From a virus (taxonomy: Duplodnaviria > Heunggongvirae > Uroviricota > Caudoviricetes): a stretch of 23,401 bases of DNA. The stretch lies in the IMG/VR virus record IMGVR_UViG_2667528074_000003, positions 1 through 23,401 of that record; one strand, 5' to 3'. Of the stretch, positions 1 to 23,401 are shown in pieces. A program made the position numbers and the translations under genes. The notes beneath the pieces were generated by a model, which saw nothing but the letters and a program-made list of their open reading frames with translations, was not told the origin of the DNA and did not search any database. How positions within the stretch are numbered: position 1 is the first letter of the stretch; each line of letters starts with the position of its first letter.

Positions 1-615
1 ATGTTAGTTAGTAAAAGCAACGGATTTAACGCTAGCGCAGTTTTGGGTAGTGGAAGTTATAATGAAAATAAATCTTCTAAACACATGGAGCTACTAGCTC
101 ATAGTATTTTAAAATTAATTTGTAAGGAAGCTGCATCAGAGACGTATCGCGGTGCTCTTGAAACTTTACAAAAAATGATGTCTGAATGTATATATCATGA
201 AGGCAACGCCTTTGTCATTATGGGAGTTGGAGAACAATTAAAACGTATTAAATATGAAGTTGGTGAAAATAACTTAAAGGTATTCAACGTACACTTTAAT
301 AATAATCACGAGTTAGTTAGTTCTGGTGAGCCTGACGTAATATGTTTAAGCAAGCAGGTCTGGGAAAATCTTCTCATTAAACTAAAGCTGGAAAACAATG
401 AAAATGTGTTTTCTGAAACTAAAAAATTATCGAATAAAAATAATGACGATCAGTTTTTTGAATGCGCTAAAAGAAATGAACAGAACCTTTTCGATAATAT
501 AAGAAAAAGTGATTTTCATGTTGGTTTACTTAAGCCAAGTAGTACGCGTAGTGTTATTTTAGAAACGCCGCCAAATGTCTGTATGGAATCACGTAATTCA
601 TATGAAAAAAAATAG
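1..615 (+). CDS. hypothetical protein, low-GC; possibly the 5' part of a longer gene split at an A8 tract
   Basis: 204-codon ORF in AT-rich DNA starting at the window edge (true start may lie upstream); ends TAG 613-615 directly after an A8 run (605-612). No recognisable domain. Confidence 0.35.
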   Translation: MLVSKSNGFNASAVLGSGSYNENKSSKHMELLAHSILKLICKEAASETYRGALETLQKMMSECIYHEGNAFVIMGVGEQLKRIKYEVGENNLKVFNVHFNNNHELVSSGEPDVICLSKQVWENLLIKLKLENNENVFSETKKLSNKNNDDQFFECAKRNEQNLFDNIRKSDFHVGLLKPSSTRSVILETPPNVCMESRNSYEKK

Positions 616-629
616 ATGAGATTTCATCT

Positions 630-1373
630 TTGTCAGAGTCAAAGGAACACCCCATAGATATTCAAGAAAAAAAAGATGCGTTTGTGAATGAGTTCAAGGG
701 GATATTATTTGATAAAAATGGAAGGTCTTCAGAGTTTCTACTTAATTTTTATGAATGTTGCTATGAGTTTTTACCAAGAGCGCAGCCTCAGGATAAAATC
801 GAAAGCTATAATTCAGCACTGCAAGCTTTCTCCATCTTTTGTTCATCTACGTTGATACATAATAATATAGGCTTTGATTTCAAATTATTTCCAGAAGTCA
901 AACTGTGTGGGGAAAATCTTGAAACGGTATTCAAATATAAAAATGGCGATGATGTCCGGGAGATAGCCAAAATTAACATTACTCTCCAAAAAGAAGAGGA
1001 TGGTTTATATAATTTAGGTGGATTGGATTTTAAGGGATGCTTCTTTTCTGGACAGAACTTCAGTAACTATGATATTCAATATGTGAACTGGGGAACGTCA
1101 TTGTTTGATCTTGATACTCCGTGTATTTTTAATGCGCCTGCTTACAACAAGAGTAATGAAAAATCATTAAAACCTGTGAGCGAAAACGGTTTAAGTGGAG
1201 TCTTGACTGATCGTAATAATAAAATAAAACTCATCACGGGCGTGGCACCATTCGATGATATTTTATTTATGGATGATGACTTTGATGATAGTTCCTCTGA
1301 GGATGATCCCGTTGAGAATAGTCCTGTTGTGACTAGTCCCGTTGTATCAAGTTCTAAAAGCAGTTTTCAATGA
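630..1373 (+). CDS. hypothetical protein, low-GC, acidic Ser/Asp-rich C-terminus; possibly the 3' part of a frameshifted gene
   Basis: 247-codon ORF with TTG start, no in-frame ATG near the 5' end and no Shine-Dalgarno; one extra A in the upstream A8 tract would fuse it in frame to ORF 1-615. Segment LDFKGCFFSGQNFSNYDIQYVNWG is loosely pentapeptide-repeat-like. Confidence 0.4.
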   Translation: MSESKEHPIDIQEKKDAFVNEFKGILFDKNGRSSEFLLNFYECCYEFLPRAQPQDKIESYNSALQAFSIFCSSTLIHNNIGFDFKLFPEVKLCGENLETVFKYKNGDDVREIAKINITLQKEEDGLYNLGGLDFKGCFFSGQNFSNYDIQYVNWGTSLFDLDTPCIFNAPAYNKSNEKSLKPVSENGLSGVLTDRNNKIKLITGVAPFDDILFMDDDFDDSSSEDDPVENSPVVTSPVVSSSKSSFQ

Positions 1374-1758
1374 TTAATAAATGGCTATTTTTACAAAGAG
1401 ATAATAACGTAGATTGAAACAATATGTATTATTGATTGATTAAACGGGATTATTTTTTACACTACAACCATTTTGCTGCCACTACCAAAGAAAAAGGGGC
1501 TACGCTTTCACGTAACCCCTTGATTTATTTGTTGAGCTGGCGGTGTCTGAATTGGTGCTGTAATTGGTTGAAATATTTATTCTAATGTCTGGTTCAACTT
1601 TCCTTAGCTGCCTGAAAGTTTTTTTGATCTTACCCATCAATAATAGGGTTACGGTACACCACGCCTGACTGATGAACTGCGTGCTCAGGGTTACCTCTTC
1701 AACGTAAAACCGTGGCAGGAGGTCCGGACTGAAAAAACTGCTCAGGACATTATCGGCG

Positions 1759-2016
1759 GTGGACGCACGGGTAGTCTGTAAACCGAACCGACTGGGGCGC
1801 AGTATGTGGCATCTTGTCGTGCTGTTGGAGGAGCTGTGCAAACGTGGTATTAACTTTCGTGCTCTGGCCCAATCTATATTTGCCCAACAATGGGGGGACG
1901 AATGCTGTAAAAGTAAAAGAATCTGCGATCTCAAAGTTATTGTGTTATTTTTATGTGAGCAGAAGATATTCATCAGAAACGATTATGTAAATCATTTTAT
2001 TTTGCCGACGGCCTGA
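1759..2016 (+). pseudogene. remnant of a Pin/Hin-type serine recombinase (DNA invertase), internal fragment only
   Basis: Translation VVCKPNRLGRSMWHLVVLLEELCKRGINFRALAQSIF matches the conserved central block of serine invertases as I recall it (Pin: VVWKLDRLGRSMKHL...ELRERGINFRSLTDSID). No N-terminal catalytic-Ser region or C-terminal HTH; the ORF tail is unrelated. Confidence 0.5.
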
Positions 2017-2285
2017 TTGTCGAAAGAAAAGAATACCCCCGTATTCCCTGAATAGATTGACTTTTTTATCCAACCATACTTCAGCGCACTGCGTTTAAAA
2101 AATGCTTCTTTCTTATGTGGAATATCATCATTTCATCATGATGTCTTTGATGAGCGGTGAACACAATACACTTGCGCTGTCTCTTCAGGATGAATCCCCT
2201 GGTCTGGTGCCTGTGGGCTGATGTTGCAGCAGAGCTAAGGTCGCTTAAACGCTACTCAGTATTCACTTTTCAGAGGATGAAATTT

Positions 2286-5200
2286 ATGAACAGGACCAGT
2301 CCCCATTATTGTCGCCGCTCAGTACTTTCCTTATTGATATCTGCCTTGATATATGCCCCGCCTGGGATGACGGCCTTCACTCCTGATGTTATTGGTGTGG
2401 TAAACGATGAGACTGTAGATGGCAGCCAAAGAGTAGATGAACGAGGTACAACAAATAACACTCATATTATCAACCATGGCCAGCAGAATGTTCATGGCGG
2501 GGTATCTAATGGAAGTCTTATTGAATCGGGTGGATATCAAGATGTAGGAAGTCATAACAATTTTGTGGGGCAGGCTAATAATACAACCATTAACGGAGGA
2601 AGACAGACAATTCATGACGGGGGCATTTCCACCGGTACGATAATCGACAGTGGCAATCAGGACGTTTATACAGGTGGTATCAGCAATGGAACGACAATTA
2701 AGGGTGGTAATTCACACATAAGTGGGGGGACTGCGAATGGAACCATCATTGATGGTGGAGGGCAGAAAGTAACAACTCAGGGGCATGTTGATGGTACAAC
2801 GATAAATAAGTCCGGTTATCAGGACATCACGCAAGGAAGTATTGCAACGAACACAATCATAAATGGTGGACGACAGTATGTTGAACAGAGCACAGTAGGA
2901 ACAACCACCATTAAAAATGGCGGTGAGCAAAGAGTATATGAAAGCCATGCGCTGGACACGACGATTGAAGGTGGAACTCAGTCTCTGAATAATAAGTCAA
3001 CGGCAAAAATACTCAGATCTATTCTGGTGGTACGCAAATTGTTGATTACACCAGCTCCTCGGATGTTATTGAAGTTTATTCCGGTGGCGTGCTTGATGTT
3101 AGTGGTGGTACGGCAACAAATGTTACCCAGCACGATGGTGCAATTTTAAAAACAAACACTAACGGTACGACGGTGAGCGGTACGAATAGTGAAGGTGCAT
3201 TCTCCATCCACAATCACGTGGCAGACAATGTGTTGCTGGAAAACGGTGGTCATTTAGACATAAACGCATATGGTTCGGCAAACAAGACGATTATTAAAGA
3301 TAAAGGAACAATGTCAGTTTTAACGAATGCTAAAGCTGATGCGACCCGAATAGATAACGGCGGGGTAATGGATGTTACCGGAAACGCGACCAATACCATA
3401 ATCAATGGTGGTACACAGAATATTAATAATCATGGTATTGCCACGGGTACCAATATCAACGGCGGAACGCAAAATATCAAGAGCGGCGGGAAAGCTGACA
3501 CGACAATTATATCCTCCGGGAGCCGGCAGGTTGTTGAGAAAGATGGTACGGCAACTGGCAGCAATATTAGCGCCGGAGGCTCGCTGATTGTCTATACCGG
3601 TGGTATTGCACATGGGGTTAACCAGGAGACGGGCAGTGCTTTAGTTGCCAACACGGGCGCAGGGACTGATATTGAAGGATACAACAAGCTCTCTCACTTC
3701 ACTATTACCGGAGGGGAGGCTAATTATGTTGTGCTGGAAAATACCGGCGAACTGACGGTAGTGGCTAAAACCTCGGCGAAAAATACTACCGTTGATGCTG
3801 GCGGTAAGCTGATTGTCCAGAAGGAGGCTAAAACAGATACCACCAGACTTAATAATGGTGGCGTTCTGGAGGTTCAGGACGGTGGTGAGGCTAAGCATGT
3901 TGAGCAACAATCCGGCGGCGCATTAATTGCTTCCACAACTTCCGGAACCCTTATCGAAGGAACCAACAGTTATGGTGATGCTTTCTACATCAGGAATTCA
4001 GAAGCTAAAAATGTAGTGCTGGAAAACGCTGGCTCATTAACAGTCGTCACTGGTTCCCGGGCAGTTGATACGATTATTAATGCCAACGGCAAAATGGATG
4101 TTTATGGAAAAGATGTTGGCACTGTACTCAATAGTGCTGGCACCCAAACAATATATGCCAGTGCCACTTCTGATAAAGCAAATATCAAAGGTGGCAAGCA
4201 AACGGTATATGGATTAGCCACTGAGGCAAATATCGAAAGTGGTGAACAAATTGTTGATGGTGGGTCAACAGAGAAAACACACATCAATGGTGGCACGCAA
4301 ACCGTTCAGAATTATGGTAAGGCAATCAATACCGATATCGTCTCTGGCCTACAACAAATTATGGCAAACGGGACAGCGGAAGGTTCCATTATTAATGGGT
4401 GTTCACAGGTAGTTAATGAGGGCGGTCTGGCTGAAAACTCGGTGCTTAATGACGGCGGCACACTCGATGTGCGGGAGAAAGGCAGCGCAACGGGGATACA
4501 GCAGAGTAGCCAGGACGCTTTGGTTGCAACCACCAGGGCGACGCGGGTCACAGGAACACGCGCGGATGGCGTCGCGTTCAGCATCGAGCAGGGTGCGGCG
4601 AACAATATCCTGCTGGCAAATGGCGGCGTGTTAACCATGGAGTCAGACACCTCTTCTGACAAAACACAGGTCAATACGGGCGGACGGGAGATCGTCAAAA
4701 CAAAAGCCACTGCGACAGGCACGACGCTCACCGGCGGCGAACAAATCGTCGAGGGGGTGGCGAATGAGACAACGATTAACGACGGCGGAATACAAACAGT
4801 TTCAGCTAACGGAGAGGCAATAAAAACAAAGATCAATGAAGGCGGTACGCTGACAGTTAACGATAATGGCAAAGCGACAGATATCGTCCAGAACAGCGGT
4901 GCCGCTCTCCAGACGAGCACGGCTAACGGTATTGAAATCAGCGGTACTCACCAGTACGGCACTTTTTCCATTTCCGGCAATTTAGCGACCAATATGTTGC
5001 TGGAAAATGGCGGTAATTTATTGGTATTAGCAGGTACCGAAGCTCGCGACTCCACGGTTGGCAGCGGTGGAGCCGCCAACGGCAGTTATCGCAGCAACGG
5101 GCTGGGCGGTCACATTGAAACCGGGATGCGATTTACCGATGGTAACTGGAACCTGACGCCGTATGCATCGTTAACGGGGGTTCACCGCTGATAACCCTGA

Positions 5201-5546
5201 ATATCATTTATCCAATGGCATGGAATCGAAATCAGTCGATACCCGCAGTTTATATCGTGAACTGGGTGCAACGCTGAGTTACAACATGCGTCTGGGGAAC
5301 GGTATGGAAGTTGAGCCGTGGCTGAAGGCGGCTGTGCGCAAAGAATTTGTCGATGATAACCGGGTGAAAGTGAATAGTGACGGTAATTTCGTCAATGATT
5401 TGTCGGGCAGACGTGGAATATACCAGGCAGGTATTAAAGCCTCATTCAGCAGTACGTTAAGCGGGCATCTTGGGGTGGGGTATAGCCATGGTGCCGGTGT
5501 GGAATCCCCGTGGAACGGGGTAGCTGGTGTGAACTGGTCGTTCTGA
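2286..5546 (+). pseudogene. AIDA-type autotransporter adhesin gene, disrupted by three homopolymer frameshifts and with a shortened beta-barrel domain
   Basis: RBS GAGGA then ATG 2286; signal-peptide-like N-terminus MNRTSPHYCRRSVLSLLISALIYAPPGMTA; long passenger of ~19-aa repeats (GGxQxVxxGGxAxxTxI); autotransporter C-terminus ending VAGVNWSF. Frame changes at A5 (3005-3009), and G5 (5176-5180); the barrel-like part is only ~150 aa. Confidence 0.6.
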
Positions 5547-5560
5547 CCATCAACGAAAAA

Positions 5561-5576
5561 GCCCACATCTGTGGGC
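5561..5576. terminator. hairpin after the autotransporter stop (GCCCACA..TGTGGGC) flanked by A5 and T3
   Basis: Inverted repeat 5561-5567/5570-5576, 15 nt after stop 5544-5546; short T tract, so terminator function is uncertain. Confidence 0.4.
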
Positions 5577-5706
5577 TTTCATGTCACCAGGAGCCGCGGC
5601 TCCTTTGCGTATCCTTTTATGTCTCTTCACCGTCTGGTCGGTGTCCTGCTGAGACTGCTAACTTCCTGTTTTTATTGGTGTTGTCCTTATACCGTCCAAT
5701 CATGAT

Positions 5707-8046: not shown

Positions 8047-8874
8047 TTATTTAATCTGGATAAATGGTGTATTGGCACCACTGGTCATGTATTGCGGCAG
8101 TGTACCGTTCCACTTGTTGATGGCTTCCAGTTCCATGACGCCTGGGTTCTGGCGCAGAGCTTCGCCGCGTAAACGAATGGCATCGGCTTCTGCCTGGGCT
8201 TTTGTACGAATCGCATCAGCCTGTCCGGCAGCTTCCGCGCGCAGCATGTTGGCTTCCGCTTCGCGCTGTTTTACTTCCTGCTCGCGTTGCAGGGTTTTCT
8301 GGTTCGCCGTGACTTTGGCATTAATGCTGTCGATAACGGTTGGCGGGTATTCCGGCTTACCCACATATGAGAGGCTCATTACCTGAATACCAATGGGTGT
8401 CATTTCTTCCTGAATGTCTTTGAGAGCTGCATCCAGAAGTTCAGACTTACCGCCGTCGATAAATTTGTCGGTGGTCATTTTGCTGGCCAGTCGGTTGAGT
8501 GCATCTGCGATCTTCTGGCGCAGGTCTGTGTCGGTAATGTCATCCACGCCTTTGCGGTAGGTCTGAAACACCGTGGTAACTTTGGATGGATCAACTTTGT
8601 AGGCCACACCGATGTGATAGCCGATGGTTGTACCGTCACTCATCTGGAAACTGAACGGTTCATCGTAGGTCTTCATTTGTTTGAAGGTGGGGAAGATATA
8701 AACTTCAGTATTCCAGCCAGTCCAGTAGCGACCAACACCGACCACCTCACCGACGCCTTTGTCGTCGCCCAGTTTATTTACCTTGATGCCAACATTACCT
8801 GGTTCAACGCGATCGCAACCGACAAGGCCAATGGTCGGAATAACAATGGCTAAAGCAAAAATAACTTTTTTCAT
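8047..8874 (-). CDS. SPFH/band-7 (stomatin-prohibitin-flotillin-HflK/C) domain lipoprotein
   Basis: 275 aa; N-terminal signal with lipobox (MKKVIFALAIVIPTIGLVGC); SPFH-like core; C-terminal Ala/Glu/Arg/Gln-rich coiled coil (QREQEVKQREAEANMLRAEAAGQADAIRTKAQAEADAIRLRGEAL); AAGGA RBS; ATGA overlap with the upstream gene. Confidence 0.8.
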   Translation of the reverse strand: MKKVIFALAIVIPTIGLVGCDRVEPGNVGIKVNKLGDDKGVGEVVGVGRYWTGWNTEVYIFPTFKQMKTYDEPFSFQMSDGTTIGYHIGVAYKVDPSKVTTVFQTYRKGVDDITDTDLRQKIADALNRLASKMTTDKFIDGGKSELLDAALKDIQEEMTPIGIQVMSLSYVGKPEYPPTVIDSINAKVTANQKTLQREQEVKQREAEANMLRAEAAGQADAIRTKAQAEADAIRLRGEALRQNPGVMELEAINKWNGTLPQYMTSGANTPFIQIK

Positions 8875-14148: not shown

Positions 14149-14362
14149 TTATGCTCACAGGTAACACATGCAAGTACTCAATCGCTGGTTCCGCGATGGC
14201 AGAGGGCGTCGCGTCCACGTTATACACTGGGAGTCTGAAACACAGCGGGTCATTTACCTGCGTGATGGTTATTCGCATGAATGCTTCAGTCCGTTGTGGT
14301 TGTTTCGTCGTGATTTTGTGGAGTGTGAAGCGCCGCCAGAGTGACGGCGTAATGGTGGAAAC

Positions 14363-14671
14363 TTACACGAAGCGGATCTGGAGTTTTTTTCCTGTTGCGC
14401 GGGCAAATTTTTTCAGTGTGGAAAATGATGGTCCACTGACACCTGACGCCAGATTACTTTCCATTCTGCTGATGACAGTTGCTTTGGTTCCCATACGCTC
14501 AGCGATCTCAGCTTGGGTTAAACCAGCTTCTTTACGTGCTGCCAGCATTTCATCAAGCAACGCAAATTCGTCGGCGATGGCGTCGTATTCTGCTTTAAAA
14601 GCTGGATCCTCCATCCATTTATCAGCCATTTCATCATGTGTAATGGTTGGCGGATTACGTTTACCAGTCAT
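14363..14671 (-). CDS. HigA-like antitoxin (XRE HTH)
   Basis: 102 aa with HTH GLTQAEIAERMGTKATVISRMESN; immediately downstream of and overlapping (11 nt) the toxin gene, the toxin-first order typical of HigBA modules. Confidence 0.8.
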   Translation of the reverse strand: MTGKRNPPTITHDEMADKWMEDPAFKAEYDAIADEFALLDEMLAARKEAGLTQAEIAERMGTKATVISRMESNLASGVSGPSFSTLKKFARATGKKLQIRFV

Positions 14672-14990
14672 GCTTTACCTCCTTCATTCTGGTTTCAGCT
14701 TTTTGGCGTTCGGCTGGTGGGGTTTTCTGGGTCTTCTTGATGAAACTATGCAGCATGATGATGCGTTTTCCTGCCAGGGTGCAGTAAAAGACGCGTGCGA
14801 TGCCATCACTACCTTTAATCCGAAGCTCGAAAAGCCCGTTACCGAAAGCACTGGTATGAGGTTCTCCGAGATTGCTGCCGTATACCTTCATGCGTTCAAC
14901 AAGATGCTGGTATCGGGCACGCATACTCAATGGAAGCTGGTCGACCTCCAGCCTGACCTCTTCACTGTAGTATTCGATAGTGTAGTTCAT
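14661..14990 (-). CDS. HigB/RelE-superfamily toxin (phage gp49-like mRNA interferase family)
   Basis: 109 aa; characteristic motifs NGLFELRIKGSDGIARVFYC and IMLHSFIKKTQKTP. Confidence 0.8.
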   Translation of the reverse strand: MNYTIEYYSEEVRLEVDQLPLSMRARYQHLVERMKVYGSNLGEPHTSAFGNGLFELRIKGSDGIARVFYCTLAGKRIIMLHSFIKKTQKTPPAERQKAETRMKEVKHDW

Positions 14991-14996
14991 GAGTTA

Positions 14997-15020
14997 AAAC
15001 ATAACAAAATGGTTATGTTT
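14997..15020. promoter_or_regulatory. palindromic operator candidate upstream of the toxin gene
   Basis: Perfect 9-bp inverted repeat AAACATAAC-N6-GTTATGTTT ending 7 nt before the toxin start codon; overlapped by a TTGTGC-17-TATGTT promoter-like element on the minus strand. Confidence 0.4.
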
Positions 15021-15671
15021 GCACAATATATTGATTCTGCAATTTCGGGACGTTACACTGTTCCAGCACCTTATAAAGCGGGTGCCGGGATTTGCACCCC
15101 GGAATTGCATACGGCGATATATGACGCGCCAGCGTCTTTTTTATCGTCCGCGCTCACGCACGCCAGAATTATGGTGGGCTGGGTAGGGGAGCCGAAAGGC
15201 TCGCCGGTTTCCGTATGCGCCGGTAGTGCAAACCCTGTTCAGTCCGCCACCAGCGAGATTTGCACCTCCGGTGGTGGAAGTTATCCATTGCATACGGAGG
15301 CTGCCATCATGGCTACAGTCCCAACTTCCCCATTCCTCAAAATTGAGATCGTCAACGGTAAGGCCGTTATTTTTTCCCTGCATGTTGCCTGCCACTTCAA
15401 GCGCATGCACCAGAACATCGTTGACAAAATCGAGTATCTGAACTGCTCGCGTGAATTTTTTACCCGCAATTTCATTCCGGGTACTTATCACATCTATGGT
15501 GACTCTCTGCGTGGTTATTACATCACCCTTGATGGTCTGATGATGCTTCAGCTTGGGTTAAGTCTGCGCACAATGCGGTACTACGAGAGCTGTATTGATG
15601 CATTCCATGAAGCTGAAACCGTCCAGGTACATTCCGCTTTCCGTCGTCATCAACGGGAGGTGCACCTATGA
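15009..15671 (+). CDS. Rha-domain phage regulatory protein, tandem paralog 1 (start uncertain)
   Basis: C-terminal ~110 aa carry a Rha-like winged-helix pattern (SLHVACHFKRMHQNIVDKIEYL ... YYITLDGLMMLQLGLSLRTMRYYESCIDAFHEAE). ATG 15009 has no SD; an internal ATG at 15309 has a GGAGG RBS. The frame stays open upstream only because it is antisense to the TA genes. Confidence 0.55.
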   Translation: MVMFAQYIDSAISGRYTVPAPYKAGAGICTPELHTAIYDAPASFLSSALTHARIMVGWVGEPKGSPVSVCAGSANPVQSATSEICTSGGGSYPLHTEAAIMATVPTSPFLKIEIVNGKAVIFSLHVACHFKRMHQNIVDKIEYLNCSREFFTRNFIPGTYHIYGDSLRGYYITLDGLMMLQLGLSLRTMRYYESCIDAFHEAETVQVHSAFRRHQREVHL

Positions 15672-16333
15672 TCCGCTACCTGAATATTGATTCTGCACTT
15701 TTGGAACGTTACACTGTCTCTGCACCTTATAAAGCGGGTGCCGGGCGTGGAAACCCGAAATTCAATATAGAGCACAACCGCGCTCATGCGGTTTTTTCGT
15801 GTCATGAGCATTGCTACGCCCAAATTATGGTGGGGCGTGCAGGGCCAACTTCGGTTGGGCCGGGTTCTATGTTGACCGGTATTTCCACCCCTGTACGTCT
15901 CACCACCTATATGGTCGTGGAAAGCCTTGGTGGTGAGTTCTTTGAATTCAACATAGGGGCTGTCACCATGACTACCACCACTACCCACCCATTCCTCAAA
16001 ATTGAGATTATTAACGGTAAGGCCGTTATTTTCTCCCTGCATGTAGCCTGCCATTTCAAGCGCATGCACCAGAACATCGTCGACAAAATCGAGTACCTGA
16101 ACTGCTCGCGCGAATTTTTCACCCGCAATTTCATACCGGGTACTTATCACATCTATGGTGACTCTTTGCGAGGTTATTACATCACCCTTGATGGCCTGAT
16201 GATGCTTCAGCTTGGGTTAAGTCTGCGCACAATGCGGTACTACGAGAGCTGTATTGAAGCATTCCATGAGGCAGAAACCAGCGTGAATCATACCGCTTTT
16301 CGCCGTAATCAATGGGAGGCGCGCCATGTGTAA
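15668..16333 (+). CDS. Rha-domain phage regulatory protein, tandem paralog 2
   Basis: 221 aa; ATG overlaps the stop of paralog 1 (ATGA) and is preceded by GGGAGGTG; the C-terminal domain is nearly identical to paralog 1 with mostly synonymous differences. Confidence 0.65.
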   Translation: MIRYLNIDSALLERYTVSAPYKAGAGRGNPKFNIEHNRAHAVFSCHEHCYAQIMVGRAGPTSVGPGSMLTGISTPVRLTTYMVVESLGGEFFEFNIGAVTMTTTTTHPFLKIEIINGKAVIFSLHVACHFKRMHQNIVDKIEYLNCSREFFTRNFIPGTYHIYGDSLRGYYITLDGLMMLQLGLSLRTMRYYESCIEAFHEAETSVNHTAFRRNQWEARHV

Positions 16334-17764: not shown

Positions 17765-18643
17765 ATGATGACGTTTAACCTGCGTGAACAACAAACAAGA
17801 CTACAGGCGCGGATGGATGAGTTACGGTCTGAGATGGCGTTTGCGGAGACTGGGGAAAAACCGTGGCCTTATCGTTCCTGCCGGATGTGTGAAGGTCGCG
17901 GATATTGCGAAAAACATGGCGAATATCACACGCATATTCTGGTGTGGGGGGATCGTAATGGCGAGGACAGAGAGAAAATTTCACACTGTCCTCACTGCCT
18001 GAGTGCTGAAATCAACGATGTGATTATGGAGTTGTCGTCCCTGAAGGCGGAAGAACTGACTGATAACGCCGGAATTGCACTGCGTTTTCGTGACTGTGAG
18101 TTTGAAAACTATCAGGAGATTAATCCTGACGCAGCCAGAAATCTTGCTGCCTGTCGTCGCTATGCCGAAAACTGGGCGGATGTTCTGGAGAATGGCACAA
18201 ATCTCGTGCTGACTGGCAGTTGTGGCACCGGTAAAAATCACCTGGCGGTTGCGATGGCAAAATATGTCATCCGCAACTATCTCGCCAGTGTTGAGATCAC
18301 CGACGTGATGCGCCTGACCCGGGCTGTGAAAAACTGCTGGCGGAATGACAGCGAAAAAACTGCGGATGAGGTGATTGAGCATTATGCATCACTGGATCTG
18401 CTGATTATCGACGAAGTGGGTGTCCAGTTTGGTAGCGCGGCGGAAATGGCCATTCTTCAGGAAATTATCAATGCCCGGTACGAAAGTATTCTGCCAACCA
18501 TCCTGATCAGCAATCTTTCACCGAAGGCGTTGTGGGCATACATCAGTCCACGTATTGCTGACAGGGTTACGGATGGTGGCCGTAACCTGTTGTCCTTCAA
18601 CTGGCCCAGCTACCGGGCACATACCGGAGGTGTGGCAGCATGA
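17765..18643 (+). CDS. DnaC-like helicase loader (AAA+ ATPase) with N-terminal Cys-rich region
   Basis: Walker A LTGSCGTGKNHLAVAMA (DnaC-type GTGKNHL), Walker B LLIIDEVG; CxxC...CPHC cluster near the N-terminus; RBS GAGGTGA before ATG 17765 (track GTG at 17756 is an alternative). Confidence 0.85.
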   Translation: MMTFNLREQQTRLQARMDELRSEMAFAETGEKPWPYRSCRMCEGRGYCEKHGEYHTHILVWGDRNGEDREKISHCPHCLSAEINDVIMELSSLKAEELTDNAGIALRFRDCEFENYQEINPDAARNLAACRRYAENWADVLENGTNLVLTGSCGTGKNHLAVAMAKYVIRNYLASVEITDVMRLTRAVKNCWRNDSEKTADEVIEHYASLDLLIIDEVGVQFGSAAEMAILQEIINARYESILPTILISNLSPKALWAYISPRIADRVTDGGRNLLSFNWPSYRAHTGGVAA

Positions 18644-20040
18644 TCAGCCAGAACAGTCCGGTCTGGCGTAACGATGATCTGGAAGGTGCTGTTATTGGCG
18701 CATTCTTTTTGCGTGGGGCAGATCCGGAAGTGATGGATATTCTGGCCACACTACCGGCGGACGTTTTTTCTGTACGACCGTACCGGGATATCTACACAGG
18801 CATCTGCAGACAGGCCCGTGTGTCCGGCGTGATTGATCCTGTGCTGTTGTGCAATGAGATGCCGGAACTTGCCCCGGTGATTACTGATACCGGGCGTAAA
18901 ACCTGGGTGAAGTCATCTCTGGAACACTATGTTGCAGCACTGCGACGCAATGCCGCACTGCGTGATGCAGAAAAAACACTGGCCGAAGCATTGCAGAAAT
19001 TACGTGATGCGCATACCTGTGAAGCAGCTGAAGATGCCCTGAAGGATGCTCAAAACATGATGGTCTCATTGTCGACCGAAAAGGGCATTATTCAGCCTGT
19101 ACACATTGATGATGTACTTCCGGAGGTGGTTGACCGTGTTGAATGCCGGAATCAGGGGCTGGAGAAATCCAGGACGTTGATGACCGGTATTGATGAGCTG
19201 GACGCAAAAACAGGAGGCATGGAGCCCGGCGACCTGATATTCATCGCGGCGCGCCCTTCGATGGGGAAAACAGAACTGGCGCTGGATATCATCGACAAAG
19301 TGACTGAACAGGGGCGCGGTGTTCTTCTGTTCACAATGGAAATGGCGAACATTCAGATCGGTGAACGCATGGTGTCTGCTGCCGGAGGAATGCCTGTATC
19401 GCGCCTGAAATCTGTCTCTAACTTTGGTGACGAAGACTGGGCGCGTTTCATTAAGGGTGTGGAGCTGATGACCGGACGCAATATCTGGATGGTGGACCAG
19501 GCGAACCTGACCATTGACGAGATATGCGCAACAACGAAACACCATTTGATTAAACATCCGGAAACGGCACTGGTGGTGGTTGATTATCTCGGGCTGATAA
19601 AAACCCGAACCACGGGGCGTCATGACCTTGCCGTGGGTGAAATCTCAAAGGGACTTAAAGGCCTGGCAAAATCCGGTGGTTTTCCGTTGATTGCGCTGAG
19701 CCAGCTTTCCCGCAGTGTGGAGTCCAGACCAAATAAACGTCCCATGAACTCAGACCTGAAAAATTCCGGAGAAATAGAGGCGGATGCTGACATCATTCTG
19801 ATGCTTTACAGGGATGAAGTGTACAACCCGGATACGCAGGCCAGGGGCATCGCAGAAATTAATATCACGAAGCAACGTAATGGTTCTCTGGGGACGATTT
19901 ACCGACGTTTTTATAACGGACATTTTCTGCCCGTAGACCAGGAAAGCGCACAGGTTCTTTCTACACCAATGCAGCCGTCCAGACCGCGAAGATACAGTAA
20001 CAAACGAACTGACAGCAGTAAGATGGAGCGTTTCTTTTGA
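18640..20040 (+). CDS. DnaB-family replicative helicase
   Basis: 466 aa; DnaB-like N-terminal domain; Walker A ARPSMGKTELALDI; ATGA overlap with the DnaC-like gene. Confidence 0.85.
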   Translation: MISQNSPVWRNDDLEGAVIGAFFLRGADPEVMDILATLPADVFSVRPYRDIYTGICRQARVSGVIDPVLLCNEMPELAPVITDTGRKTWVKSSLEHYVAALRRNAALRDAEKTLAEALQKLRDAHTCEAAEDALKDAQNMMVSLSTEKGIIQPVHIDDVLPEVVDRVECRNQGLEKSRTLMTGIDELDAKTGGMEPGDLIFIAARPSMGKTELALDIIDKVTEQGRGVLLFTMEMANIQIGERMVSAAGGMPVSRLKSVSNFGDEDWARFIKGVELMTGRNIWMVDQANLTIDEICATTKHHLIKHPETALVVVDYLGLIKTRTTGRHDLAVGEISKGLKGLAKSGGFPLIALSQLSRSVESRPNKRPMNSDLKNSGEIEADADIILMLYRDEVYNPDTQARGIAEINITKQRNGSLGTIYRRFYNGHFLPVDQESAQVLSTPMQPSRPRRYSNKRTDSSKMERFF

Positions 20041-20051
20041 ACAACCAGACA

Positions 20052-20294
20052 ATGACTTTTACCCCTGAACAATTACGTAAACAGGCACAGGAAATGTTGC
20101 GACAAGCGGAACAACTGGAAAAAACAGGTGTAACAAAAGATACCATTCGTCGGGATATGGTTCCCGCGCTCAGAGAATTGATGCAGGCGAAACACCGTGC
20201 ACAAAAAGCGGTGGATGAGCTGGTGGATTGTGTGGCAGAGCTGGAAACCAAAGTTGGAAAGTTTGAAAAACTGGTGCATGAGGTGCTGCGCTGA
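20052..20294 (+). CDS. hypothetical small helical protein (80 aa)
   Basis: ATG 20052 (track TTG at 20037 overlaps the helicase stop); stop overlaps the ATG of the next gene; weak RBS. Confidence 0.45.
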
Positions 20295-20677
20295 TGCGTG
20301 ATATTCAGATGGTTCTTGAGCGTTGGGGAGCGTGGGTGGCAAATAATCATGAGGATGTTACCTGGTCATCGATTGCAGCCGGATTCAAGGGGCTTATTCC
20401 TTCAAAGGTTAAATCGCGACCGCAATGTTGTGACGATGATGCGATGGTTATTTGTGGTTGCATGGCTCGTCTGAAAAAGAGCAACAATGACTTGCATGAT
20501 TTGCTGGTGGATTATTACGTTTGGGGCATGACGTTTATGAGGCTGGCGCAGAAGCATAATTGCTCTGATGGATATATCGGGAAAAGGTTACAGAAAGCAG
20601 AGGGAATAATCGAAGGTATGTTAATGGCATTAGACATTTGCTTAGAGATGGATATTGATGTTACTAAGCTTAATTAA
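20294..20677 (+). CDS. late-gene antiterminator Q-like protein (phage 82 / DLP12 QuuD-like)
   Basis: 127 aa at the canonical position after the replication genes and before the late region; N-terminus [14 protein letters not shown] and Cys cluster ([12 protein letters not shown]) match my recollection of DLP12 QuuD; followed by a hairpin-rich leader. Confidence 0.6.
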
Positions 20678-20758
20678 TACGATTATTTTTTAATAAAAAA
20701 CGGGGCGTAAAAACACCCCCAAGATAAAGGGTAATATATAACAGAAAGTTTAGATAGT

Positions 20759-20840
20759 AAGAAGCAGGGCTCTAATGCTTCTTAAAGAAGTGGCTTGAGG
20801 GAGCCACTTATATGCTGAGAAGATAAAACCTTCTCAGCAT
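20759..20840. promoter_or_regulatory. cluster of three consecutive perfect hairpins between Q and the porin gene (candidate late-leader terminator region and porin terminator)
   Basis: Hairpin A 20759-20783 (8-bp stem), B 20788-20809 (8-bp stem), C 20812-20840 (11-bp stem ATGCTGAGAAG/CTTCTCAGCAT); C lies 17 nt beyond the porin stop on the opposite strand. Confidence 0.4.
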
Positions 20841-20857
20841 ATCCTTTATTAACCAGA

Positions 20858-21961
20858 TTAGAACTGGTATACCATACCTACAGCAACGATATCGTCAGTG
20901 TTTACACCAAGAGCTTTAGTAAAGTCATTTTTGTCAAGCAGGTTGATTTTGTAATCAACGAAGGTAGACATATTTTTGTTGAAATAATAAGTTGCGCCAA
21001 CATCAACATATTTGACTAAATCCTGGTCACCAAAAATGCCAAGATCTTTACCTTTTGATTGCAGATAAGCAACAGACGGACGCAGACCGAAATCGAACTG
21101 ATATTGTGCAACAGCTTCGAAGTTTTGTGCTTTATTAGCCACAAAGTAATCTGCGAATTTAGTCATATTCTGGGTTTCTGAATAGGTTGTTGCCAGATAA
21201 ACGTTGTTTGCGTCGTATTTCAGACCTGCAGCCCAGACTTCTGCATTTTCGCCGGAAGCAAATACTCCTGGGAGAAGTTTACCCAATTTGACTTGAGTGT
21301 CGGTACGATCAGATTTCGCATACGTTGCACCAATGCCGAAACCTTCGTATTCATAGGTCGCAGAGAAACCAAAACCATCGCCATTGCCTTTGGTGTAGTT
21401 ATCTAAGCTACTACGATCATGATTATTCTTACCCTGGTACTGTGCAGCAAAATTCAGACCATCAACCAGACCAAAGAAGTCGTTGTTACGATAAGTTGCA
21501 ACACCAGTGGTACGACCAGTCATGAATACATCTGTTTGGGTCCAGGTATCTCCACCGAATTCTGGCAGGACGTCAGTCCATGCACCGATATCGTATGCTA
21601 CACCGTAGTTACGACCGTAATCGACGGAGCCGTAGTCACCGAATTTAAGCCCTGCAAATGCAAGACGGGTTTTATCTTTGGCTGCTCCCTGTTCTTCAGT
21701 ACGGTTTCCTTTGAATTCATATTCCCACTGACCGAAACCAGTCAGTTGATCGTTGATCTGAGTTTCGCCTTTGAAACCCAGACGAGCATAAGTTGTGTCG
21801 CCATCATTTGCATCGTTAGAGGAGAAGTAGTGCTTAGCATTAACTTTTCCGTACAGATCCAACTTGTTGCTGTCTTTATTATAAATCTCTGCTGCCTGAG
21901 CAGACATCGCCATCAGTACTGATGCAGCCACAGCAGAAATTGCCACCGTTAATTTTTTCAT
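20858..21961 (-). CDS. outer-membrane general porin of the OmpC/OmpF/PhoE family (phage-borne NmpC/Lc-like)
   Basis: 367 aa; signal peptide [23 protein letters not shown] then AEIYNKD...; near-colinear with OmpC as I recall it ([38 protein letters not shown], terminal MVYQF); opposite orientation to the phage operons; AT-rich upstream region. Confidence 0.9.
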
Positions 21962-22468
21962 CACGAACCCTTTTTTTTGAACTATTTTTAAAAAATGATG
22001 TCACTGCGCGATAAATATTCATCTAATCAATGTGGTTATTTCAAGAGTCAAGTTTAATTTAGTGATTGATAATATGATCAAGATCTCATTTATGCGCGTT
22101 GGTATAATTTGTTGATATTTTTGTGTAATGCGGAATTTAATTAATGAAATACATTATTTACTCATTTTTCATTGAAAAATAACAATGATGTATTTGATGT
22201 AATATGTGTTATTCGTATGTTTTGTTTTGTTATATTGCATTAACATTTGAGTGGCGTATTTGTGGTTTACGTACGTAAAAATTCAATTATGATGTTAAGA
22301 GTGGTTGCTTCGACTCCTTCCTTAAAACCGCCGTCGGGCTGTTTTTTGTACCCGAAAAACGGCACAGGACGTTAAACGTGCTGGTGGTTGCGAATACTGG
22401 TCTTTCAGCTTGCTGGCTTTTTCGACAAGAGTTATTGGTATGTCACGTTAACCAGAAAGGAAAAAGAC

Positions 22469-22663
22469 ATGCTAAAACAGCAGGATATGACCGAAACTGC
22501 CAGAGTGGTGTTTAATGAATTAAGCGTCACCGAACCGGCGACCGTCGGGGAAATTGCGCAGAATACTTACCTTTCACGCGAACGCTGCCAGTTAATACTG
22601 ACTCAGCTTGTTATGGCGGGTCTGGCAGATTATCAGTTCGGTTGTTACAGACGTCTTCCGTAG
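22469..22663 (+). CDS. hypothetical small protein (64 aa), possibly winged-helix-like
   Basis: ATG 22469 with AGGAAA RBS (track start 22388 has no RBS); precedes the methyltransferase gene. Confidence 0.45.
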   Translation: MLKQQDMTETARVVFNELSVTEPATVGEIAQNTYLSRERCQLILTQLVMAGLADYQFGCYRRLP

Positions 22664-22816
22664 TGAAGGCTTTTTAATTTGTGGTAATGGGCGGCTGGTG
22701 GGTGTTAGCGGCACCTGCCAGCCATCTGCTCATGCGTTGGGGTCACAAGCAAACCTCAGGCCCATCTGCTTTGCGCAAAAGCGGTATGAGCCTATCAGAG
22801 AAGTGCTTATTGATCT

Positions 22817-23401
22817 ATGGCTAATACTGTAAAAATATCCAGTTGTGAGTTAATCAACGCTGATTGCCTGGAATTTATCCGGACCTTACCGGAAAACTCC
22901 GTCGATCTGATAGTCACAGACCCGCCATACTTTAAAGTGAAGCCCGAGGGCTGGGATAACCAGTGGAAGGGCGACGCTGATTACCTGCAATGGCTGGACC
23001 AGTGTCTTGCGCAGTTCTGGCGGGTATTAAAACCCGCCGGAAGTCTTTACCTGTTCTGTGGTCATCGCCTGGCATCTGATACCGAAATCATGATGCGTGA
23101 ACGCTTTAATGTACTGAACCACATTATCTGGGCGAAGCCGTCCGGACGCTGGAACGGGTGCAACAAGGAAAGCCTGCGGGCGTATTTCCCGGCAACAGAA
23201 CGCATTCTGTTTGCCGAACATTATCAGGGGCCATATCAGCCAAAAAATGACGGCTATGCGGCAAAAGGGCGCGAGCTTAAGCAGCACGTCATGGCCCCGC
23301 TGATTGCTTACTTTCGTGATGCGCGTGAATCACTGGGGATAACGTCGAAACAGATAGCGGAAGCCACCGGAAAGAAAAACATGGTTTCGCACTGGTTTGG
23401 T
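22817..23401 (+). CDS. DNA methyltransferase (DPPY motif, N6-adenine-type), 3'-truncated by the window end
   Basis: Not in the ORF track because no stop is reached; open from ATG 22817 to the window end (195 codons); motif IV LIVTDPPYF near the N-terminus. Confidence 0.75.
   Translation, partial: MANTVKISSCELINADCLEFIRTLPENSVDLIVTDPPYFKVKPEGWDNQWKGDADYLQWLDQCLAQFWRVLKPAGSLYLFCGHRLASDTEIMMRERFNVLNHIIWAKPSGRWNGCNKESLRAYFPATERILFAEHYQGPYQPKNDGYAAKGRELKQHVMAPLIAYFRDARESLGITSKQIAEATGKKNMVSHWFG

Follow-up and report, generated by a model that had tools for sequence, protein, structure and literature searches.

A probable Lc/NmpC-type lysogenic-conversion cassette with an IpeX homologue between Q and pR' of a lambdoid prophage

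General features of the locus

The DNA analyzed here, referred to as the window, is a stretch of 23,401 nucleotides (nt) from a virus of the class Caudoviricetes (IMG/VR record IMGVR_UViG_2667528074_000003, positions 1 to 23,401). It is a lambdoid prophage that encodes an integrase, a CI-like S24 repressor, a Cro/YdaS-like protein, Rha/Ash proteins and a DnaC-like loader. Between its antiterminator gene Q and its late promoter pR' lies a porin gene that is transcribed in the opposite direction and is accompanied by a control region and a 3' untranslated region (UTR) homologous to the regulatory RNA IpeX. We consider it very probable that the region makes up a self-contained cassette for lysogenic conversion, of the Lc/NmpC type. 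The reading draws on the integrity of the gene, its family, its position relative to Q and pR', the terminator, the homology and covariation of the IpeX element, and the complementarity of the IpeX seed to host porin mRNAs. The features of the cassette and its borders are as follows.

20294-20677, plus strand: Q antiterminator gene, 127 amino acids (PF06530, E = 1e-53); left border of the cassette
20695-20857, minus strand: porin 3' UTR, IpeX homologue, 163 nt, with four hairpins and an unpaired linker
20695-20701 and 20702-20719, minus strand: T-run and stem of the intrinsic terminator, called by a scan
20730-20746, minus strand: invariant 17-nt core of the IpeX linker, UUCUGUUAUAUAUUACC, predicted to be a MicC-like seed against the ompC and ompF initiation regions
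20810-20842, 20788-20809 and 20760-20784, minus strand: IpeX hairpins, followed by the unpaired linker (20721-20759)
20858-21961, minus strand: porin coding sequence (CDS), 367 amino acids (signal peptide 21893-21961, mature protein 20861-21892, stop codon 20858-20860)
21962-22058, minus strand: porin 5' UTR and core promoter region, nearly identical in the window, E. coli EC11, DLP12 and PA-2
21965-22260, no strand: AT-rich divergent control region between the porin gene and pR', G+C 0.24-0.35
22039-22044 and 22015-22020, minus strand: candidate porin promoter, TTGAAA and GAATAT with an 18-nt spacer; weak hexamers, read by eye
22070-22090, minus strand: CRP-like site, TGAGA-N6-TCATA, centred 119 nt upstream of the porin ATG
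22262-22352, plus strand: late promoter pR' and the conserved start of the late leader, from a scan call and homology to VT1-Sakai; right border of the cassette

The porin gene

The list of open reading frames (ORFs) gives a frame of 368 codons with a GTG start (20858-21964, minus strand), and an ATG at 21961 lies one codon inside it. The ATG is the likely start. It was chosen, and with it the CDS 20858-21961, because it is preceded by AAGGG and because the corresponding locus of E. coli EC11, which is 97.2% identical to that of the window, is annotated with the same 1104-nt CDS. The predicted protein matches the Pfam profile Porin_1 (PF00267) over positions 1-337 of 337 (E = 8e-152), and solved chains of OmpC, OmpK36, PhoE and OmpF give full-length matches to its residues 25-368, with E values down to 1e-137. 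Residues 1-23 are the same as in the annotated signal peptide of lc (GenBank J02580), the mature protein starts with AEIYNKD, and the C-terminus reads VYQF, ending in the final Phe. A preliminary description of this DNA, made from the letters alone, had claimed a complete general porin with a signal peptide and a C-terminal aromatic residue, and the gene proves to have all three. The truncated barrel that it had named as the contrary outcome is at odds with the full-length profile and structure-chain matches; judged by its sequence, the barrel is complete and without truncation. These end-to-end matches to solved OmpC, OmpK36, PhoE and OmpF chains would also point to a 16-strand trimeric beta-barrel. 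The protein carries the loop-3 motif PEFGGD. When it is aligned with OmpF, the K/R/R/R residues and the D/E residues of the PEFGG-bearing stretch are found to be retained, and these we take, from what is established about OmpF, to be the constriction residues of the pore.

In an identity matrix built from a MAFFT alignment, the porin is 93.7% identical to Lc and 93.7% to the rejoined NmpC of K-12, followed by S. arizonae OmpD (79.0%), OmpN (66.9%), OmpC (65.0%), PhoE (64.7%) and OmpF (61.7%). In tblastn searches, Lc of phage PA-2 scores 93.2% identity and the IS5-split NmpC of 434B/DLP12 93.4%. Among OmpC, OmpF, PhoE, NmpC and Lc, the five porins named for comparison in the preliminary description, the closest are thus Lc and NmpC. 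On the strength of these identities the porin is a member of the Lc/NmpC group, and its nearest chromosomal kin are the OmpD porins. The earlier label "OmpC-family" therefore holds at the level of the general porin family (Porin_1) and fails for OmpC proper: an OmpC orthologue was considered and rejected, given 65.0% identity to K-12 OmpC versus 93.7% to Lc/NmpC and 79% to OmpD. The automatic RefSeq annotation of the near-identical EC11 gene reads "porin OmpC", which is a family-level name. Differences between the window porin and Lc fall in short clusters, one of them a 2-amino-acid insertion. In the general topology of porins these clusters appear to be surface-loop regions.

The insertion site between Q and pR'

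The Q protein of the window is 89% identical to QuuD of K-12 and about 78% identical to Q of VT1-Sakai and 933W-type Stx phages, and is distantly related to the Q21 structures. At the other border, a promoter scan of the plus strand called TTTACG (-35, 22266-22271) and TATGAT (-10, 22288-22293) separated by a 16-nt spacer, from which the late transcript would start near 22300. We identify the block 22262-22352 as pR' because it aligns with the annotated late promoter region of VT1-Sakai, whose "putative late promoter", "Q-utilization" site and first terminator match it base for base. For Sakai, dRNA-seq and Term-seq have located the start of the PR' transcript and its end at tR' (PMC7547250). 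VT1-Sakai has no insertion at this point, its pR' overlapping the stop codon of Q. The same block is present upstream of essD in DLP12, lies 330-398 nt from the porin ATG in 80 of the 81 porin-bearing prophage loci, and can be found in 62 phage records, including porin-less ones such as phiP27, Stx2a_WGPS2, SfII, SfV and cdtI. By this alignment, a unit of 1.6 kb (20678-22261) is inserted exactly between Q and pR'. The gene order, Q followed by the reversed porin gene and pR', is the same in DLP12, in PA-2-like phages and in 80/81 of the prophage loci. Since the porin gene is located 5' of pR', late transcription runs away from it and does not cross it.

The opposite orientation of the gene between Q and the late region, as put forward in the preliminary description, agrees with these positions (porin on the minus strand, end of Q at 20677, pR' at 22266-22293). 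Its further suggestion that the gene is a moron is upheld by a terminator of its own, an AT-rich upstream region, flanks that are adjacent in VT1-Sakai, and a deviant base composition: G+C is 0.36-0.47 in the porin gene and 0.24-0.35 at 21965-22260, whereas values of about 0.5 are seen in the helicase gene, at the beginning of Q and in the methyltransferase gene. As to a promoter of its own, another mark of a moron, there is a weak hexamer pair within a conserved block, without a call from the scan. Other phages carry other cargo in the same slot, for example a GIY-YIG nuclease gene in phiP27, two reversed hypothetical ORFs in Stx2a_WGPS2 and a reversed ORF of 148 amino acids in PhiR40_1. The interval between Q and pR' appears, from such comparisons, to be a general insertion hot spot whose cargo is often reversed.

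E. coli EC11 and six IMG/VR prophage contigs code for exactly the same porin protein, and 463 viral contigs code for relatives of it. In tblastn searches, the "OmpD/NmpC" genes of about 36 sequenced lambdoid phages are 87-94% identical to the window porin. In data with one genome per species, identities of at least 88% are confined to E. coli and E. albertii, and the OmpD-type chromosomal porins of Salmonella, Citrobacter and Enterobacter reach 74-79%. The cassette region is matched in 4646 of 5426 complete E. coli genomes. The Lc/NmpC porin cassette of lambdoid prophages is thus already known and very common in Escherichia prophages; accounts of such porins in PA-2 and DLP12 date from the 1970s and 1980s.

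It could be argued that the porin gene is part of the host chromosome, as an orthologue of ompC or ompD that happens to adjoin prophage DNA, and the automatic label "porin OmpC" on the near-identical E. coli locus might be cited in its favor. The probability of this is vanishingly small. Phage genes flank the porin gene on either side within the prophage, and the same cassette recurs in sequenced phages and in the 463 viral contigs, whereas OmpD-type genes have a different 3' end and different neighbors. The gene order of the window excludes an origin from the chromosome rather than from a phage.

The control region and expression of the porin gene

About 500 bp of AT-rich sequence (21965-22468) had been described upstream of the porin gene. 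Some 300 bp of this, 21965-22260, are indeed AT-rich. The remainder, 22262-22468, has a G+C content of 0.39-0.46 and belongs to pR' and its leader on the plus strand. Beyond its first 100 nt or so, the stretch 21965-22260 is poorly conserved with DLP12 and PA-2. Within the conserved part, the pair TTGAAA-18-GAATAT may tentatively be taken as the porin promoter. The CRP-like site aligns with positions 1363-1383 of the PA-2 record, which are annotated there as a CRP site and are equally far from the ATG of lc, and CRP probably controls the porin promoter. The 5' UTR further contains, at 22000-22012 on the minus strand, a conserved GCAGUGAC. Judged by the RybB seed, this is presumably one mismatch away from the GCAGUGGC motif of the ompC and ompF leaders. 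The mRNA of nmpC is a reported RybB target in E. coli (PMC3333887).

An intact porin gene might nevertheless be silent in this lysogen, for instance through H-NS, and be either ballast or rarely expressed, in which case there would be no conversion in practice. Several points weigh against expression. H-NS typically targets AT-rich upstream DNA for silencing, and the region upstream of the porin has a G+C content of 24-27%. The consensus promoter scan called no promoter on the porin strand. In the title of Prilipov 1998, as cited in PMC3333887, nmpC is termed quiescent in E. coli B and K-12. Moreover, the support for porin expression comes from reports on homologues and would extend to this lysogen by analogy. 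These reports are that NmpC of prophage Perceval in strain LF82 is expressed 10-fold above the local background (PMC9928086), and that both nmpC copies of CFT073 are induced at 37 C at the RNA and protein level while ompC falls (PMC12890032). The window porin shows full conservation of reading frame, signal peptide and pore residues, and the block that holds the 5' UTR and promoter is nearly identical across divergent phages. Conservation of both the frame and the control block argues for selection and against a silent gene, which we regard as unlikely.

The porin 3' UTR

The gene ipeX was reportedly mapped, by Castillo-Keller and colleagues in 2006, to the stretch between nmpC/lc and its terminator. 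The porin 3' UTR of the window aligns with the sequence from stop codon to terminator of nmpC/lc in K-12 DLP12 and PA-2, with a mean column identity of 87%. Three hairpins, an unpaired linker and the terminator are found in all versions of the element, including those of other E. coli, E. albertii and phage P7. Folding an alignment of nine distinct sequences with RNAalifold yields 46 base pairs, 10 of which show compensatory changes, and three compensatory changes in hairpin 1 separate the window from the DLP12 type. This covariation is supportive of the fold; the nine sequences are few and related, so it does not amount to statistical proof. All 84 phage-type loci have the element, as against none of 77 chromosomal porin loci, the latter having a plain terminator.

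No Rfam family was found for the porin 3' UTR, and a scan of the window at gathering scores matched only isrK and C4, both elsewhere. A permissive Rfam scan returned a weak match to GcvB at 20694-20862 (18 bits versus a gathering score of 42, E = 0.39), which we take as chance. Hairpin 1 (20810-20842) is also terminator-like when read on the plus strand and, going by its sequence, could stop transcription coming from Q.

IpeX is known as an RNA encoded by DLP12 that represses ompC and ompF (PMC5069750, PMC3333887, PMC7177473). The preliminary description did not account for this part of the cassette, which is reported to lower OmpC and OmpF post-transcriptionally.

Predicted pairing of IpeX with host porin mRNAs

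The 17-nt core of the linker does not vary in any of its 17 columns among 24 distinct 3' UTRs, and the hairpins do vary. We computed the pairing of IpeX with porin mRNAs by running RNAduplex on the linker only and adding opening energies, as full-length RNAs gave unphysical duplexes over their whole length. The targets were K-12 leaders (-60 to +21 for ompC), the host's own ompC being outside the window. With the K-12 allele of IpeX, the predicted duplex with ompC consists of 15 bp over AUAUAACAGAGGGUU, which includes the Shine-Dalgarno sequence, and 9 bp at the MicC site, for a total of -26.7 kcal/mol; for both alleles, the leader stretch involved is -29 to -5. The window allele forms 15 + 7 bp (-21.9 kcal/mol), and MicC, as a control, scores -26.5 kcal/mol. 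Compared with 1000 composition-preserving shuffles, the two alleles have z scores of -5.9 (K-12) and -3.8 (window), and 0/1000 shuffles reach the K-12 allele. Genomic 81-mers that bind as well as ompC number 0 out of 3994 for the K-12 allele and make up 0.25% for the window allele, and none of 47 annotated start regions binds the K-12 allele as well as ompC does. Duplexes with ompF score -18.6 (K-12 allele) and -16.9 (window allele), placing them in the top 1.2% and 3.4% of genomic windows, respectively.

Scores with ompA, phoE and the porin's own mRNA are unremarkable. OmpA is said to be unaffected by IpeX in the abstract of the 2006 study, according to which Hfq is reportedly dispensable for the repression of ompC, but not of ompF. 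The targets predicted here fit the reports that IpeX represses ompC and ompF (PMC5069750, PMC7177473).

When corrected for accessibility, the totals for ompC are -16.7 kcal/mol for MicC, -15.6 for IpeX of K-12 and -10.6 for IpeX of the window. The IpeX of phage P7 gives a corrected total of -15.8 kcal/mol with ompF, in a near-continuous duplex of 22 bp over -14 to +9. The IpeX-like 3' UTR of P7 occupies positions 2617-2800 of the locus record, and its linker pairs with K-12 ompC less well than with ompF.

Taken together, these calculations are compatible with a model in which the 3' UTR of the phage porin mRNA acts as a MicC-like base-pairing small RNA (sRNA). Its core and flanks would bind the ompC leader at -31 to -1 with about the strength of MicC and the ompF start more weakly, and the P7 copy would be fitted to ompF instead. 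We hold this model to be evenly balanced between right and wrong. Two observations tell against it. The window allele is weaker than the K-12 allele, with corrected values of -10.6 kcal/mol for ompC and -7.7 for ompF, and according to a review, no base pairing takes place between IpeX and its targets (PMC3617542). IpeX might instead lower OmpC and OmpF by a route other than base pairing, such as titration of a protein, and the complementarity would then be a coincidence or a relic of an ancestry shared with MicC. Besides the statement in the review, this alternative is favored by PMC8313858, which terms IpeX an Hfq-independent phage sRNA with one annotated target, and by the AT-richness of all the sequences, which inflates duplex scores. 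A coincidence is harder to reconcile with the extreme position of ompC for the K-12 allele among shuffles, genomic windows and start regions, with the invariance of the core while the hairpins vary, or with the near-continuous match of the divergent P7 copy to ompF. We judge IpeX action without pairing to be a serious possibility, leaning toward the doubtful. If pairing by IpeX is real, it would replace the published view of no pairing, and could explain the Hfq-independence that was reportedly seen for ompC and not for ompF. The predicted base pairing may be the only new point of this case.

Proposed working of the cassette

The steps from expression in the lysogen, through the use of the promoter and CRP and the base pairing of IpeX, to an exclusion phenotype are proposals. 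A sigma-70 promoter belonging to the porin gene, situated in the AT-rich divergent region and probably controlled by CRP, would drive leftward transcription of the gene in the lysogen. The precursor would be exported by means of its 23-amino-acid signal peptide and, as its homology suggests, assembled as a trimeric 16-strand general porin. The transcript would end at the intrinsic terminator 163 nt past the stop codon, with IpeX as its tail. Pairing of the IpeX core with the ompC leader is predicted to cover the MicC site and to extend past it, taking in the Shine-Dalgarno sequence; a weaker pairing is predicted at the ribosome-binding site of ompF. The predicted net effect is that the phage porin replaces OmpC and OmpF of the host, changing surface receptors and permeability, with a possible exclusion of other phages. 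Replacement of host porins by a phage porin is the classical lysogenic conversion by PA-2, whose receptor is OmpC, so the idea of an altered outer membrane and altered receptors is not new. If the pairing of IpeX with ompC is real, it would provide a simple mechanism by which a prophage puts its own porin in the place of the host's major porins, and such an exchange would bear on the availability of phage receptors and on antibiotic permeability. For annotation, the gene should not be named ompC, the bounds of the cassette are the Q stop codon and pR', and the unit includes a regulatory RNA.

Other features of the window

Outside the cassette, the following features were recorded nearby.

18640-20040, plus strand: DnaB-type helicase, upstream of Q
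22469-22663, plus strand: ORF of 64 amino acids in the late leader, from its translation
22653-22670, plus strand: terminator-like hairpin after the 64-amino-acid ORF, called by a scan
22817-23401, plus strand: 5' part of a DNA methyltransferase gene with a DPPY motif, from its translation and the annotation of homologous loci; it runs past the end of the window

The first hairpin after pR' has a strong GC stem followed by a U-run in phiP27, WGPS2, DLP12 and VT1-Sakai. At 22330-22352 (plus strand) of the window, and in EC11, it is degenerate, and an A/U-rich stem takes its place in the fold; the next terminator-like site of the window is the one at 22653-22670. The gene for the 64-amino-acid ORF also lies 5' of the methyltransferase gene in phiP27, Stx2a_WGPS2 and EC11, and in EC11 the holin and endolysin genes come next, downstream of the methyltransferase region. 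No tRNA genes were found in the window.

Elsewhere in the window, isrK and C4 antisense RNA occur as a pair in two tandem copies (15066-15254 and 15722-15910, plus strand), both above the Rfam gathering score and within or adjoining Ash/Rha-type ORFs (14151-15671 and 15668-16333). The tandem pair looks like a duplicated antirepressor control module, of the kind known from the P1 immI region. A gene for a protein of the SPFH/Band 7 family (8047-8874, minus strand), in the early-left part of the prophage, may be another accessory gene. The flank outside the prophage, positions 1-5700, is an autotransporter region of the ypjA/ypjC type and has about 92% identity to complete E. coli genomes. This identity suggests that the host may be a divergent Escherichia lineage rather than a typical E. 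coli.

Comparison with known systems

The Stx phages (VT1-Sakai and the 933W type) resemble the window in Q (about 78% identity), in the hexamers of pR' and in the first 65 nt or so of the late leader. They differ in the 3' part of the leader, which yields the sRNA StxS and has no counterpart in the window. StxS consists of the 3' 74 nt of a 258-nt leader (PMC7547250). The block 22262-22352 was considered as a StxS region and this was rejected, as the alignment shares only the promoter and the first 65 nt or so, the StxS part being absent.

Prophage DLP12 (qsr') of K-12 has the same module, quuD(Q)-ipeX-nmpC-pR', with a Q protein 89% and a porin 93.7% identical to those of the window. In DLP12, nmpC is broken by IS5 near its 3' end, whereas the copy in the window is intact, and the late regions downstream differ. 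The Lc porin of PA-2 (protein 2, GenBank J02580) shares 93.7% identity and an identical 23-amino-acid signal peptide with the window porin; the block of 5' UTR and promoter, the distance of the CRP-like site from the ATG and an ipeX-type 3' UTR are likewise shared, and in both phages the porin gene is reversed and located upstream of the late and lysis genes. In PA-2, however, the holin and endolysin genes directly follow pR', whereas in the window the 64-amino-acid ORF and the methyltransferase gene lie between. The IpeX alleles also differ: compared with PA-2, hairpin 1 of the window has been rebuilt by compensatory changes, and the predicted duplex of the window allele with ompC has two extra G-U pairs.

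The OmpD genes of Salmonella, Citrobacter and Enterobacter are chromosomal and not located between Q and pR'. Their 3' end, unlike that of the window porin, is a simple terminator without the IpeX hairpins or core. The NmpC of P7, a P1-like phage, is phage-borne like the window porin (about 78.5-80% identity) and is followed by an IpeX-like 3' UTR with four hairpins. It differs in that it resides in a P1-type genome, where it adjoins ssb and lyz, and in that its linker fits the ompF start region best.

Among regulatory RNAs, the system to compare is MicC, which has a seed (GUUAUAU...CCUUUAU) similar to that of IpeX and an overlapping target in the ompC leader. MicC is encoded by a free-standing chromosomal gene beside ompN, whereas IpeX is the 3' UTR of a phage porin mRNA. 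The predicted duplex of IpeX is set apart from that of MicC by a 5-nt bulge and by its reach over the Shine-Dalgarno sequence of ompC.

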